From a virus (taxonomy: Duplodnaviria; Heunggongvirae; Uroviricota; Caudoviricetes), in IMG/VR virus record IMGVR_UViG_2703718809_000006: a stretch of DNA of 59,084 bases; one strand, 5' to 3'. The translations under genes and the position numbers were made by a program. Positions 29,975 to 34,646 of this stretch are shown piece after piece. Below the pieces are notes generated by a model, which saw only the letters and a program-made list of their open reading frames with translations, was not told where the DNA came from and did not search any database. Every line of letters begins with the position of its first letter. The first letter of the stretch is position 1.

Positions 29975-31006
29975 ATGTCCAATTTACTGACCGTACACCA
30001 AAATTTGCCTGCATTACCGGTCGATGCAACGAGTGATGAGGTTCGCAAGAACCTGATGGACATGTTCAGGGATCGCCAGGCGTTTTCTGAGCATACCTGG
30101 AAAATGCTTCTGTCCGTTTGCCGGTCGTGGGCGGCATGGTGCAAGTTGAATAACCGGAAATGGTTTCCCGCAGAACCTGAAGATGTTCGCGATTATCTTC
30201 TATATCTTCAGGCGCGCGGTCTGGCAGTAAAAACTATCCAGCAACATTTGGGCCAGCTAAACATGCTTCATCGTCGGTCCGGGCTGCCACGACCAAGTGA
30301 CAGCAATGCTGTTTCACTGGTTATGCGGCGGATTCGAAAAGAAAACGTTGATGCCGGTGAACGTGCAAAACAGGCATTGGCGTTCGAACGCACTGATTTC
30401 GACCAGGTTCGTTCACTCATGGGAAATAGCGATCGCTGCCAGGATATACGGAATCTGGCATTTCTGGGGATTGCTTATAACACCCTGTTACGTATAGCCG
30501 AAATTGCCAGGATCAGGGTTAAAGATATCTCACGTACTGACGGTGGGAGAATGTTAATCCATATTGGCAGAACGAAAACGCTGGTTAGCACCGCAGGTGT
30601 AGAGAAGGCACTTAGCCTGGGGGTAACTAAACTGGTCGAGCGATGGATTTCCGTCTCTGGTGTGGCTGATGATCCGAATAACTACTTGTTTTGCCGGGTC
30701 AGAAAAAATGGTGTTGCCTCGCCATCATCCACCAGCCAGCTATCAACTCGCGCCCTGGAAGGGATTTTTGAAGCAACTCACCGATTGATTTACGGGGCTA
30801 AGGATGACTCTGGTCAGAGGTACCTGGCCTGGTCTGGACACAGTGCCCGTGTCGGAGCCGCGCGAGATATGGCCCGCGCCGGAGTTTCAATACCGGAGAT
30901 CATGCAAGCTGGTGGCTGGACCAACGTAAATATTGTCATGAACTATATCCGTAACCTGGATAGTGAAACAGGGGCAATGGTGCGCCTGCTGGAAGATGGC
31001 GATTAG
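29975..31006 (+). CDS. cre: Cre tyrosine recombinase
   Basis: 343 aa, MSNLLTVHQNLPALPVDATSDEVRKNLMDMFRDRQAFSEHTWKMLLSVCRSWAAWCKLNNRKWFPAEPEDVRDYLLYLQARGLAVKTIQQHLGQLNMLHRRSGLPRPSDSNAVSLVMRRIRKENVDAGERAKQALAFERTDFDQVRSLM..., matches Cre as I recall it. Confidence 0.97.
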   Translation: MSNLLTVHQNLPALPVDATSDEVRKNLMDMFRDRQAFSEHTWKMLLSVCRSWAAWCKLNNRKWFPAEPEDVRDYLLYLQARGLAVKTIQQHLGQLNMLHRRSGLPRPSDSNAVSLVMRRIRKENVDAGERAKQALAFERTDFDQVRSLMGNSDRCQDIRNLAFLGIAYNTLLRIAEIARIRVKDISRTDGGRMLIHIGRTKTLVSTAGVEKALSLGVTKLVERWISVSGVADDPNNYLFCRVRKNGVASPSSTSQLSTRALEGIFEATHRLIYGAKDDSGQRYLAWSGHSARVGAARDMARAGVSIPEIMQAGGWTNVNIVMNYIRNLDSETGAMVRLLEDGD

Positions 31007-31023
31007 CCATTAACGCGTAAATG

Positions 31024-31040
31024 ATTGCTCTAATTCTTTG
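31024..31040 (+). promoter_or_regulatory. C1-operator-like 17-mer upstream of c8
   Basis: ATTGCTCTAATTCTTTG. Confidence 0.5.
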
Positions 31041-31056
31041 ATATTTATGGTGACAT

Positions 31057-31368
31057 ATGAGAAAGAATTTCAACATCGACGGAAAATATGTAGTGCTGTC
31101 AGTGAGCACTAATATTCAGTCGCCAGCCGTCATTGTCACTGTAAAGCTGAGCGATAGAATGCCTGATATTGACTCAATATCCGTTGCGTTCCCTGTCAGA
31201 AGTATGCGTAGTGCTGAACATTTCGTGATGAATGCCACCGAGGAAGAAGCACGGCGCGGTTTTGCTAAAGTGATGTCTGAGTTTGGCGAATTTTTGGGGC
31301 ACGTTGACAAAGCCCTCTCAATCAGTTCAGCAAGGTCCAAAGCATTAACAGCTTCCATGATGAAATAA
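31057..31368 (+). CDS. c8: Small protein in the P1 c8 position
   Basis: 103-aa ORF between cre and ref. Confidence 0.5.
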   Translation: MRKNFNIDGKYVVLSVSTNIQSPAVIVTVKLSDRMPDIDSISVAFPVRSMRSAEHFVMNATEEEARRGFAKVMSEFGEFLGHVDKALSISSARSKALTASMMK

Positions 31369-31498
31369 AAAAAGCCTGGCAAGGAGCCAGGCTGCACAAA
31401 AGAGCGGGTTTGTATTCCGCATCCAATCAATCAAGAAGGAGTATAGCACACAGGTACTGAAGTGAAAAAATGTGATTCGCGATAAACAAAATCTCTAC

Positions 31499-31528
31499 CA
31501 TTGCTCTAATTGATTGCTATAATTGAGC
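31499..31528 (+). promoter_or_regulatory. Two overlapping C1-operator-like 17-mers with a -10 TATAAT (ref promoter/operator)
   Basis: ATTGCTCTAATTGATTG and ATTGCTATAATTGAGCC. Confidence 0.6.
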
Positions 31529-31584
31529 CGCAGTTTTTGTCAACTACGAAGACGTTGCCATTACTTAACTCCTTGACATCATTG

Positions 31585-31609
31585 GCGGCCATCAGGCCGC
31601 CTTTTTTTT
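31585..31609 (+). terminator. Terminator-like hairpin immediately upstream of the ref start codon (possible attenuator)
   Basis: GGCGGCC-atca-GGCCGCC followed by TTTTTTTT, ending about 5 nt before the ATG. Confidence 0.5.
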
Positions 31610-31614
31610 GCCAT

Positions 31615-32175
31615 ATGAAAACAATCGAACAAAAAATTGAACAGCACCGTAAGTGGCAGAAGGCAGCCAGAGAACGAGCGATCGCTCGGCAACGGGAGAA
31701 GTTGGCTGATCCGGCCTGGCGAGAATCTCAATATCAGAAAATGCGGAATACTATCGACCGCCGTATCGCTAAACAGAAAGAGCGCCCACCAGCCAGCAAA
31801 ACGCGGAAAAGCGCGGTAAAAATAAAATCTCGTGGCTTGAAGGGACGAACACCGACGGCGGAGGAGCGGCGCATAGCCAATGCTCTTGGCGCTCTCCCCT
31901 GCATTGCCTGCTATATGCATGGAGTAATATCTGAAGAGGTGTCTCTGCACCATATCTCCGGTCGTACCGCGCCTGGTTGTCACAAAAAGCAATTGCCACT
32001 TTGTAGATGGCACCACCAGCATGCAGCACCGGCTGAAGTAAGAGAAAAATACCCCTGGCTGGTCCCTGTTCATGCCGATGGTGTGGTTGGAGGCAAGAAA
32101 GAATTCACCTTGCTGAACAAGTCAGAGATGGAGTTGCTGGCTGACGCCTATGAGATGGCAAACAGCATACACTAA
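31615..32175 (+). CDS. ref: Ref recombination-enhancement HNH endonuclease
   Basis: 186 aa from the ATG at 31615; Cys/His cluster 'CIACYMHG...HHISG...CRWHH'; basic N-terminal region. Confidence 0.8.
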   Translation: MKTIEQKIEQHRKWQKAARERAIARQREKLADPAWRESQYQKMRNTIDRRIAKQKERPPASKTRKSAVKIKSRGLKGRTPTAEERRIANALGALPCIACYMHGVISEEVSLHHISGRTAPGCHKKQLPLCRWHHQHAAPAEVREKYPWLVPVHADGVVGGKKEFTLLNKSEMELLADAYEMANSIH

Positions 32176-32322
32176 TAAATATATTATTTTTAATCTGAAA
32201 TAATTGACAACTGACAAGTGACTTCAGTCAGAATCATCACATGCCCGGTACGGATGGATCCCTTTTCAAATATTCCATGGACGGCACAGTCTGAGTACCG
32301 GGCGCTACCTTCAGTTGTATTG

Positions 32323-32352
32323 CTAAGCCGCCGCTGGTGGCTTTTCTTTTTT
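32323..32352 (+). terminator. Terminator-like hairpin plus T-run just upstream of mat
   Basis: AGCCGCC-gctg-GGTGGCT followed by TTTCTTTTTT. Confidence 0.45.
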
Positions 32353-32364
32353 ATAAGGGGCGCT

Positions 32365-33006
32365 ATGGATAAGAAAATATGCGTTGTTTCGATGAGCGTC
32401 GGCAAACCGGCGTCAATGACTGCCGCATGGATCAACAATGAGCTGATAATGGCTGAGCGGACCAGCTACCCTGAACGCCGCCGCGATATGGAACTCCAGC
32501 TGCTGCGCGAATTGCGAGAAAAAGAGGAAAAGGGTTTTATCGTGCTGGTGGAAGAGGAAAACAGCTTTATTACGGGTCGAGTTGGCCAGCGTGTAAGGTT
32601 GCGCGATCCCTTCATGAACGGCAGGCCGGTACTAATTGAAGCAATGCAGATTTACAAGGAGCTGGAACGCCAGAAAGCGATCAAGTTACCGCGCAAAGAA
32701 TCCGGCAAATACATCCTCCACCAAAGCATCTTCGATTCCGAACACGACAAAAAAGGCGATGAATTTTTCAACATCAACTGGAGCGAAATAACGACAGAGC
32801 ACGTTCTGTCGTTGTTATGCTGCTTCGCAACGGAATATAACAACGTTGCAAGCGCCGACTACATCAGGGCAATGGCTGGAGAAGTTGAGGCCCGCCAGGA
32901 ACCATCGTTACTAAGCCCTCTGATTAACATAATTCGCGGAACCCAATGTCTAGCCGACAAGCGAGTTCCTCAAGGCTTACTTACCGGCAAAGAAAACTAT
33001 TTATAA
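32365..33006 (+). CDS. mat: Mat-like protein (particle maturation)
   Basis: Position after ref as in P1; probable start at ATG 32365 (AAGGGG upstream); the track ORF opens at 32218. Confidence 0.5.
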   Translation: MDKKICVVSMSVGKPASMTAAWINNELIMAERTSYPERRRDMELQLLRELREKEEKGFIVLVEEENSFITGRVGQRVRLRDPFMNGRPVLIEAMQIYKELERQKAIKLPRKESGKYILHQSIFDSEHDKKGDEFFNINWSEITTEHVLSLLCCFATEYNNVASADYIRAMAGEVEARQEPSLLSPLINIIRGTQCLADKRVPQGLLTGKENYL

Positions 33007-33096
33007 TTAATTACGTCAGTAGCCAATAGAGATTTTTGTTGTGGAACAAAAATATATATTTTACAATCTAGTAACTTTGGGTGGAGGATTATTACA

Positions 33097-34137
33097 ATGA
33101 TGAATATTAAGCCGCTGAAAATTAGGAACAAGGTCATGAAGCCTCATAAAGCATCATTAAACCCTGACCTAACCGCAAGGAATGTACTTACATACAGTCA
33201 TTGGGATTTTGTCGAACTCTGGTTAAAGCGAAACGAAAAAGATGAGGCTCTTTTTTATTGGGAGCAAGCAAAAGTATTTAATCAGGCGGCCAATGGTTTA
33301 CCCAACCAATCAGCCCCACTTTTGCACTATTATTCATTCATGAATGCAGTAAAGGCGTTACTTTCATCTCGCAATATAAACTTCAAACAGCATCATGGTG
33401 TTGCTAGGGGTGAAAATGCAGCCCAAATTGATAACTTATCTGATATAAAAGTAAAAATAAAAAATGAGGGTATACTTCCGTCTTTTTCAAAATATATTGA
33501 CGGCACCTCTCATGAGGGGGTGTACAATATAAAAAACCTTTTTTCTGGATTGCCATATATTCATCGTACATATTGCCTTACTTATGATGTAACTGATGAT
33601 ATATTTATTCCACTGATCGATGCTGAGTTCGTTTTGAATGAGTCAGACAATAGCCTGTTTTTCACTGCGATTTTATCCAAGGATTTTCGGTTCGACACAG
33701 TTTTCGACATTCTACCGCCAGCGTTCGAATTGTTTGAAAGAGAAAAGTACAAAATAAAATCAGTAGAATCATTACTTGATTTTAATGAAAATCAATCGTC
33801 CAACATGCCGCAATTAACTGAATTTCATCAAAAAATAAGAAGAAATCTTTACTATATCAATGGCGCAGAGACTCTTTGGTATCTCAAACGTAAAAACAAT
33901 CAATCTGAGCATACTTCTGTTTCAATATCGCCATTGGTTATAACCCTAGCAGCTATGCATCGATTAAGTGAGCTATGTCGGTATGACCCACTTAAGCTAA
34001 GACAGTTACTAAATGAAAAAGAAAACTGGATTATTGCTGAATTTATTCAACAATCTCCGTCACAGTTTATAGATGCAATTTCATCTGAAATTACTGGACA
34101 CCAATTTCTTATCCCAAACGTAAGGTCTGCTTCTTAA
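33097..34137 (+). CDS. Unknown 346-aa protein, first gene of the AT-rich cassette (candidate defence component)
   Basis: AT-rich coding sequence unlike its flanks; GGTGGAGG 8 nt upstream of ATGATG; only an R-x6-H (RNINFKQH) motif noted. Confidence 0.6.
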   Translation: MMNIKPLKIRNKVMKPHKASLNPDLTARNVLTYSHWDFVELWLKRNEKDEALFYWEQAKVFNQAANGLPNQSAPLLHYYSFMNAVKALLSSRNINFKQHHGVARGENAAQIDNLSDIKVKIKNEGILPSFSKYIDGTSHEGVYNIKNLFSGLPYIHRTYCLTYDVTDDIFIPLIDAEFVLNESDNSLFFTAILSKDFRFDTVFDILPPAFELFEREKYKIKSVESLLDFNENQSSNMPQLTEFHQKIRRNLYYINGAETLWYLKRKNNQSEHTSVSISPLVITLAAMHRLSELCRYDPLKLRQLLNEKENWIIAEFIQQSPSQFIDAISSEITGHQFLIPNVRSAS

Positions 34138-34646
34138 TGAATATATATATCGCATGCGCTTTAACTCATGTTCCAAGGGAAATTTTCCATGAGTACAGTA
34201 ATTGGATTCACAGCCTTGCAAAAGGTTTATCTCAAAATAACAACGTAAAATATGCTTTGATAAATAGTGACCCAGAATTATCAAAGCGCCCTGAAAGTAA
34301 CAAATCTAGACTTTGTTACATTTGGGACAGAGATATGGTTGAGAAATCTGATGTAATAATTGCAGAATGTAGTTTTCCATCAACAGGGCTAGGAATAGAG
34401 TTGCAGATTGCTGAACAGAAGAACATTCCTGTAATCATCTGTTATAAAGATTATGGGATAAATAAAACTAAAACCATTGAATACGTGAATCCAGATGAGA
34501 CTACCCATAATCTACAAGTTGGCGAGGGTTTCATTTCTCATATGGTATTAGGACTACCAAACATCCTTGATGTCATATTATGTAAAGATATTGATAACAC
34601 ATGCAGGAAGCTAAAAATACTGTTAGATATGATTAACCATAATTAA
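34137..34646 (+). CDS. Nucleoside 2-deoxyribosyltransferase / DNPH1(Rcl)-like protein, second gene of the cassette
   Basis: TAATG coupling to the upstream ORF; '...DVIIAECSFPSTGLGIELQIAEQKNIPVIICY' matches the catalytic-Glu core of the NDT/DNPH1 fold. Confidence 0.6.
   Translation: MNIYIACALTHVPREIFHEYSNWIHSLAKGLSQNNNVKYALINSDPELSKRPESNKSRLCYIWDRDMVEKSDVIIAECSFPSTGLGIELQIAEQKNIPVIICYKDYGINKTKTIEYVNPDETTHNLQVGEGFISHMVLGLPNILDVILCKDIDNTCRKLKILLDMINHN

Follow-up and report, generated by a model that had tools for sequence, protein, structure and literature searches.

Terminator-like hairpins before ref and mat in a P1-like phage-plasmid, and a conserved structured leader of mat

How are two genes expressed when a terminator-like hairpin stands directly before the start codon of each? 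The question is raised by ref and mat in a 59,084-nucleotide (nt) stretch of viral DNA (IMG/VR record IMGVR_UViG_2703718809_000006; Caudoviricetes), which was analysed at its full length and is called the window here. The window is a phage-plasmid of the P1 kind: over positions 31000-33007 it matches positions 1461-3468 of phage P1 (AF234172) at 95.4% identity, with cre, c8, ref and mat in the same order as in P1. A P1 coordinate plus 29538 gives the window coordinate, and the promoter and operator features discussed below come from the P1 record AF234172, carried over via the 95% identity. A preliminary description of the region, made from its letters, had noted the two hairpins and suggested that both genes are controlled by attenuation or antitermination, or that a small RNA is encoded ahead of mat. 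Comparative data indicate that positions 32241-32364 are a non-coding, structured and conserved leader of mat, and we lean, with a little better than even confidence, towards the explanation that both hairpins are intrinsic (Rho-independent) terminators in 5' leaders, limiting in cis the transcripts that reach ref and mat.

The start of mat and the layout of its leader

In the GenBank and RefSeq records of P1 (AF234172 / NC_005856), mat encodes 250 amino acids (aa) and starts at position 2716, equivalent to window position 32254 and 111 nt upstream of the ATG at 32365 that the preliminary description had taken as the start. Frame breaks, third-position data, the N-termini of homologues and the Shine-Dalgarno site all agree on 32365. 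Of 84 P1-clade loci, 37 have the ATG at 32254 in the reading frame of mat; in the other 47, indels in the T-run and G-run (32345-32361) have moved it out of that frame. In the would-be reading frame 32254-32364 only 2 of 37 third positions are variable, as against 60 of 174 in mat. A length of 213 aa is found in most database Mat homologues, those that NCBI calls 'maturation control protein' included; phrog_1837 spans Mat residues 1-213, and phrog_1837 and NCBI-named products measure 212-213 aa. Alignments with Mat homologues of 31-73% identity, among them those of D6, a Klebsiella plasmid and an E. coli plasmid, begin at residue 1. Direct reading of the plus strand gives a Shine-Dalgarno site, AAGGGG at 32355-32360, 4 nt before the ATG at 32365; other clades have GGAGG, AGAGG or AGGGG at this position, and the same reading finds no Shine-Dalgarno site at the ATG at 32254.

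The alternative that Mat has 250 aa and that 32254-32364 codes for its N-terminus (MDPFSNIPWTAQ...), with the hairpin incidental, draws on the ATG at 32254 being in frame and open into mat in both P1 and the window, and on some gene callers giving products of 247-262 aa. Against the broken frames, the lack of third-position variation, the homologues down to 31% identity that begin at MDKK, the position of AAGGGG and the D6-type leader, which lacks an upstream ATG as far as the terminator loop, we regard this alternative as extremely improbable. To judge from these comparisons, the P1 GenBank and RefSeq records place the mat start 111 nt too early (P1 2716-2826 being non-coding), and the mat coding sequence of the window is the 213-aa frame MDKKICVV... 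at 32365-33006 on the plus strand, as indicated by homologue lengths, phrog_1837 and the N-terminal alignment. Because the mat start is placed at 32365, the stretch 32241-32364 becomes its 5' leader.

The leader lies downstream of a dual mat promoter on the plus strand (32204-32234; P1 annotation and pattern match), which combines a sigma-70 promoter, Pmat, with a late promoter, LPmat. The TTGACA of the preliminary description is found at 32204-32209 and is the -35 of Pmat; the LPmat -22 box AAGTGACTT is at 32216-32224 and the common -10, CAGAAT, at 32229-32234. The mat transcript would start at about 32241, 7 nt after the annotated -10. In single-sequence folds and in the consensus fold, the 5' part of the leader RNA forms a three-way junction (32243-32303, plus strand). 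It is closed by helix P1 (GCCCGGUAC 32243-32251 / GUACCGGGC 32295-32303), which is supported by folds and compensatory changes and covers the inverted repeat described earlier, CCCGGTAC (32244-32251) and GTACCGGG (32296-32303). Within it lie hairpin P2 (AUGGA 32254-32258 / UCCAU 32274-32278), with a conserved CUUUUCAAA loop of ~15 nt, and in the folds a small hairpin P3 within 32279-32292. An unpaired linker (32304-32324), near-invariant in the P1 clade save for one polymorphic spot, leads to the terminator-like element at 32325-32352, recovered by scans and folding: an 8-base-pair (bp) stem AAGCCGCC/GGUGGCUU, a 3-nt loop and the U-run UUUUCUUUUUU. At the DNA level, AAGCCGCC-GCT-GGTGGCTT occupies 32325-32343, and TTTTCTTTTTT runs on from it to 32352, which leaves 12 nt to the ATG at 32365, just as had been described. 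The RNA hairpin folds at -11.5 kcal/mol (z = -3.2 versus shuffles), with 5 of 8 pairs G-C, and a leader RNA terminated here would measure ~107-112 nt. The leader RNA of about 100 nt that had been suspected before mat is thus borne out by the comparative data as a non-coding structured leader of ~125 nt.

The U-run sequence UUUUCUU (32342-32348) is also complementary to mat codons 3-5, AAGAAAA (32371-32377), and in read-through RNA this pairing could put the Shine-Dalgarno site and the AUG in a loop of ~22 nt. It probably arises simply because a U-run stands opposite a Lys-rich N-terminus.

Conservation of the mat leader and its linkage to mat

Over 53 distinct sequences, the 5' part of the leader has a nucleotide diversity (pi) of 0.009, and the leader hairpin one of 0.0025. 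Diversity is also low in the mat promoter (0.013), and in mat it is 0.011, 0.003 and 0.074 at codon positions 1, 2 and 3. In a plasmid collection, 681 of 696 leaders reach 95% identity or more over 129 nt, in a set in which Mat identity is 74-100%. The mat leader is more constrained than mat itself.

All P1-clade variants fold alike into three-way junction, linker, terminator, U-run and Shine-Dalgarno site. Relatives with Mat 57-74% identical (L084, L085, L088, L251-L254) retain the fold with compensated helix P1, reading CCCGGUAC/GUACCGGG in the window and CCCGGUGC/GCACCGGG and CCCGGCGC/GCGCCGGG in relatives; their terminator stems and linkers differ. In the consensus fold, three helix P1 pairs are changed on both sides, with UA to CG and AU to GC as natural changes, 98.8% of cells are paired versus 34-47% with slid partners, and the covariation score was reached by none of 500 shuffles. 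Because there are only ~7 independent lineages, this covariation support is moderate rather than overwhelming. Nearly every lineage has a hairpin followed by a U-rich stretch: folding energies lie between -10.6 and -17.5 kcal/mol, and 5-7 of the 8 nt after the stem are U.

More distant elements of the D6 type and the Klebsiella type, with Mat 30-35% identical, have the same order of promoter, three-way junction, linker, GC hairpin with U-run, Shine-Dalgarno site and mat, a layout based on single-sequence folds and helix searches. Their helix P1 reads GGCUCCC/GGGAGUC, GGUUCCC/GGGAGCC or GUGUUCCC/GGGAACAU, P2 carries a CUUUUGAC loop and P3 is small. The covariance model of the P1-type leader gave weak matches to them, with expectation values (E) of 0.01 to ~7, all at the expected position before mat. 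Across clades, the linker between junction and terminator varies in sequence and in length, from ~11 to ~40 nt. A MAFFT alignment of the D6- and Klebsiella-type leaders was out of register and its consensus fold uninformative, and it was set aside. Scans of viral and metagenome collections with degenerate DNA patterns were likewise rejected: nearly all hits were chance, the covariance model confirming 4 of 80 and 1 of 80 loci, all P1-like, which brought in no new diversity. A comparison with Rfam 15 gave sub-threshold noise in the window, and five related loci had no match at E up to 1.

The leader keeps company with mat. The plasmid collection holds 696 records with the leader and 696 with Mat at at least 60% identity, and no other copy of the leader was found within the window, where it is single-copy. 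Unrelated DNA joins at ~32203 in several loci, and therefore promoter, leader and mat appear to travel together; the neighbour upstream of the leader is an opposite-strand gene in D6 and a HigB/HTH pair or inserted DNA elsewhere. By this comparison, the ref-mat interval is a cargo insertion spot, and the mat promoter and leader remain joined to mat. In the Salmonella- and Citrobacter-type loci L084, L087 and L088, additional genes lie between ref and mat, among them those for Tad2-like/Sequestin-domain proteins and a HigB/HTH pair. In the Klebsiella type, mat overlaps the next gene, which encodes a baseplate protein, and therefore the leader would head a morphogenesis operon there.

Since the position of the mat hairpin is kept whatever neighbour lies upstream, it is not simply the terminator of the upstream gene. 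The broader proposal that both hairpins are gene-end terminators or insulators serving upstream units (cre-c8 before ref, ref before mat) fits the fact that each lies downstream of a co-directional gene; c8 has no plus-strand terminator of its own, the hairpin at 31373-31393 having a minus-strand T-run, and it is plausible that lysogens are protected in this way from toxic ref driven by cre and c8 transcription. This proposal leaves the conserved three-way junction unexplained, along with the constant place of the mat terminator after promoter and junction, and because a C1-controlled promoter is annotated upstream of the ref hairpin, this hairpin must act on ref's own transcripts too. We consider it improbable.

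The linkage bears equally on the small RNA of the preliminary description. The terminated mat leader (~107-112 nt) could be a functional trans-acting RNA derived from the 5' untranslated region, with mat read-through secondary. It would have its own promoter (Pmat/LPmat) and terminator, its 3' hairpin and long U-tail are like those of Hfq-binding small RNAs, and the search for an antiterminator switch described below was negative. Since the unpaired loops and the linker, not the stems alone, are almost invariant in the P1 clade, the small-RNA reading stays alive. On the other hand, the leader is always directly upstream of mat, the linker as the likeliest seed region is not conserved between clades, and no target of the P2 loop beyond chance was found within the window: complementarity there was at chance level, the host and the rest of the phage genome being outside the search. 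The strict linkage to mat therefore favours a role in cis, and we judge the trans-acting RNA unlikely, though it deserves to be kept in mind.

Predicted termination and read-through before mat

A generic terminator scan marks both the ref and the mat hairpins as terminator-like. Its count over a 2.3-kb stretch, 6 versus 2.9 +/- 1.8 in shuffles, is not significant alone. A stricter scan of both strands of the window gave 12 terminator-like signals; among those on the plus strand, the ref and mat hairpins alone precede the ATG of a confirmed gene by 13-21 nt. The two hairpins stand out from chance because they are conserved, in stems and compensatory changes, not because of these counts. Both have the G+C-rich stem-loop and adjacent U-run of an intrinsic terminator, and with the promoters of the P1 annotation both lie between transcription start and start codon, where an attenuator would be.

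For mat, we favour the following course of events. The dual promoter, early through sigma-70 and late through Lpa (with which the host SspA acts in P1 late transcription), would start an RNA at ~32241 that folds the three-way junction first and then reaches the terminator, which ends 12 nt ahead of the start at 32365. RNA terminated there would be ~107-112 nt long, and read-through would yield the mat mRNA. Because the terminator sits between promoter and gene in every clade, Mat would need read-through. The mat hairpin probably terminates transcription, and most likely the leader terminator caps or conditions mat expression from a promoter that is active early and late.

Several observations weigh against this account. 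The termination and the start site are deduced from sequence and from predicted promoter annotations. The consensus fold yielded no conserved, mutually exclusive antiterminator pairing, and in a fold that stops short of the terminator 3' arm, the 5' arm finds no partner. Nor is there a leader peptide with a conserved frame: the open reading frame (ORF) from the ATG at 32254 shifts frame among lineages. The linker of ~11 to ~40 nt argues against a classical riboswitch-type switch, and without an identified switch 'attenuator' may mean just constitutive partial termination. Natural variants L049 and L085 weaken the mat hairpin, the D6 leader has an alternative fold that is nearly isoenergetic (-46.7 versus -45.6 kcal/mol), and the conservation of loop and linker within the P1 clade would fit a trans-acting RNA as well. 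The suggestion that mat is controlled by attenuation or antitermination therefore stands in part: there is a non-coding structured leader with a terminator-like hairpin, and neither the antiterminator pairing nor the leader peptide was found.

Blocking helix P1 in the fold recruited no terminator arm into other pairs. The P2 loop was also considered as an anti-Shine-Dalgarno element and rejected, since its duplex energies with the ribosome-binding site were no better than those of shuffled loops. The P1 transcriptome papers make no mention of the mat leader. Mat itself has no Pfam match, its PHROGs family is one of unknown function, and its structure model is poor, with a mean predicted local distance difference test score (pLDDT) of 45.9.

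With no switch found, the junction would either stabilise the 5' end of the RNA or bind polymerase, a protein or a ligand. It probably governs how stable the RNA is, or allows a factor to tune read-through. The put sites of phage HK022 offer a parallel: they are cis-acting, promoter-proximal RNAs of two stem-loops that make RNA polymerase terminator-resistant at variable distance. The mat leader resembles put, as a lead only, in being a promoter-proximal RNA upstream of a terminator. It differs in that the mat domain is a closed three-way junction, and put is not among the Rfam hits. In an antitermination platform of this kind, the junction would bind RNA polymerase, a protein or a small molecule and make read-through conditional, for instance late in infection. 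In its favour, the structured domain lies beside the promoter and is conserved with covariation, the varying distance to the terminator suits a distance-independent mechanism, read-through would be required in every clade, and the title of the 1988 ref paper cited in the next section also names an antiterminator. Counting against it, we know of no P1 antiterminator, there is no Rfam similarity, and no ligand or protein candidate emerged, the Mat model standing at pLDDT 46. In addition, P1 late transcription is described as activator-driven, with Lpa as the activator (PMC10695390). We take a dedicated antitermination platform to be quite unlikely.

Among known systems, the mat leader as we prefer to read it, a cis-acting leader with an intrinsic terminator, resembles the pR'-tR' unit of lambda (6S RNA) and its regulator Q in having a late promoter and an intrinsic terminator ~100-200 nt on, so that a short RNA is made unless there is read-through. 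It differs in that P1 late transcription is described as driven by the activator Lpa (PMC10695390), no qut-like site or Q homologue was identified, and the mat terminator is preceded by a folded RNA domain. Like transcriptional riboswitches and attenuators, the mat 5' untranslated region has a folded domain (the three-way junction), then an intrinsic terminator and then a ribosome-binding site; unlike them, it has no conserved antiterminator pairing, leader peptide or Rfam match, and its linker varies. A further comparison is with the c4 antisense RNA of P1 and P7 (Rfam C4), a small regulatory RNA whose ends pair and which has two hairpin loops. It shares the phage and the structured nature with the mat leader, but belongs to another locus, immI, and Rfam C4 had no match in the region at E up to 10. 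It is conceivable, though doubtful in our view, that the three-way junction represents an undescribed class of cis-regulatory RNA of P1-, D6- and Klebsiella-type phage-plasmids, binding polymerase, a protein or a metabolite to govern terminator read-through.

The ref leader, its surroundings and the meaning of both leaders

The ref gene (31615-32175, plus strand) encodes a RecA-dependent nuclease of 186 aa (Pfam PF16786, E = 1e-50). Every part of its leader hairpin is present as first noted: GGCGGCC-ATCA-GGCCGCC at 31584-31601, T8 at 31602-31609, then GCCAT and the ATG at 31615. Hairpin and T8 end 5 nt before this ATG, downstream of the operator-overlapped promoter, and no purine-rich motif precedes the ATG, in agreement with the earlier remark that ref has no obvious Shine-Dalgarno site. 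The element (31584-31609, plus strand; scans, fold and conservation) has a 7-bp all-G/C stem and a 4-nt loop, and its RNA folds at -16.2 kcal/mol (z = -4.6 versus shuffles) with 7 G-C pairs and U8. Stem and T8 are retained in ~33 of 37 distinct P1-clade upstream sequences, with the loop ATCA, ATTA or TAAA. Because indels in relatives disrupt the in-frame ORF that enters ref from the TTG at 31510, the ATG at 31615 is taken as the ref start.

Two promoters precede the hairpin on the plus strand. P2ref (31495-31523; P1 annotation) has a perfect -10, TATAAT at 31518-31523, and is overlapped by the C1 operator Oref (ATTGCTCTAATTGATTG, 31500-31516; P1 annotation), which has 3 mismatches to the C1 consensus. 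P1ref (31555-31582; TTGCCA-16-CATCAT) is a second promoter that the P1 annotation calls 'predicted', and it was also picked up by a promoter scan (9/12 matches, with TG). Transcription from P2ref would start near 31530, so that P2ref transcripts would carry the complete hairpin. P1ref transcripts would begin within the hairpin 5' arm or loop, and starting inside the 5' arm they could not form the hairpin. For ref, the favoured course is then that the C1-repressed P2ref RNA would meet the hairpin and U8 right before the AUG, and that Ref would be encoded only by read-through RNA or by RNA from the weak internal P1ref that lacks the hairpin 5' arm. The missing Shine-Dalgarno site would further lower translation, and low ref expression would suit a toxic nuclease.

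Such control of ref has been proposed before. The work of Windle, Laufer and Hays (1988, J Bacteriol 170:4881; cited in PMC4713147 and PMC10695390) bears in its title the words "attenuator-antiterminator control". The window shares with the published P1 ref attenuator the locus, the 95% identity and a C1 operator/promoter followed by a GC hairpin and T8 before the ref ATG; it differs at one loop base (ATCA in the window, ATTA in most relatives), with identical spacing. To judge from this match, the ref hairpin is the element behind the 1988 attenuator title; it was already known, and nothing is added to it here. Of the attenuation suggested for ref, the leader terminator after a C1-controlled promoter thus matches the proposal in the P1 literature, as far as that title conveys it, and the transcript ends are predicted.

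C1 consensus matches with at most 3 mismatches number 11 in the window versus 0.23 expected. Omat, a C1 operator upstream of the mat promoter (32166-32183, no strand assigned), is placed only by homology to the P1 annotation (2628-2645); with more than 3 mismatches to the C1 consensus it does not enter this operator scan list. At 10745-10768 lies another terminator-like hairpin (-11.1 kcal/mol, followed by TTTTATTA), placed between opposed C1 operator matches at 10718-10734 (plus strand) and 10767-10783 (minus strand).

Between c8 and ref, the minus strand at 31366-31468 holds a candidate small-RNA gene of ~68 nt. It has an extended -10 promoter, TTTTCA-17-TGnTATACT (31468-31440), with a putative start near 31433, and a canonical terminator, AGCCUGGCUCCUUGCCAGGCU with U7 (31393-31366). 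Across 63 P1-like loci, the divergent L059 among them, the candidate is near-invariant, with 22 distinct variants; the P1 annotation does not list it, and in Rfam it gave a SorX match that was sub-threshold only. Downstream of mat, where P1 has res and mod, two co-directional ORFs occupy 33097-34646 on the plus strand, one YaaC-like (346 aa; PF14175, E = 6e-46) and the other like a nucleoside 2-deoxyribosyltransferase (169 aa; PF05014, weak, below the cut-off). Neither has a PADLOC or PHROGs match, and together they could form a defence or cargo module, so far uncharacterised, in a variable slot.

Phage P1 serves as a reference phage and is widely used as a vector, and resistance genes are widely carried on P1-like phage-plasmids. 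A stretch that the P1 records annotate as protein is instead a conserved folded leader RNA with a built-in terminator-like hairpin. The mat half is the new part, a structured leader with a predicted intrinsic terminator together with a correction of the reference annotation, and it provides a defined element through which the 'dual control' of mat, the gene for particle maturation, can be approached. If it is true that the junction is cis-regulatory, it would time Mat and, in the D6 and Klebsiella types, the baseplate and tail genes that follow as well, and the ref leader terminator could respond to the same P1 antitermination activity that is hinted at in the 1988 title. Should the junction prove to be a sensor or an antitermination platform, an RNA layer would be added to P1 late-gene regulation, so far described through the activator Lpa alone.

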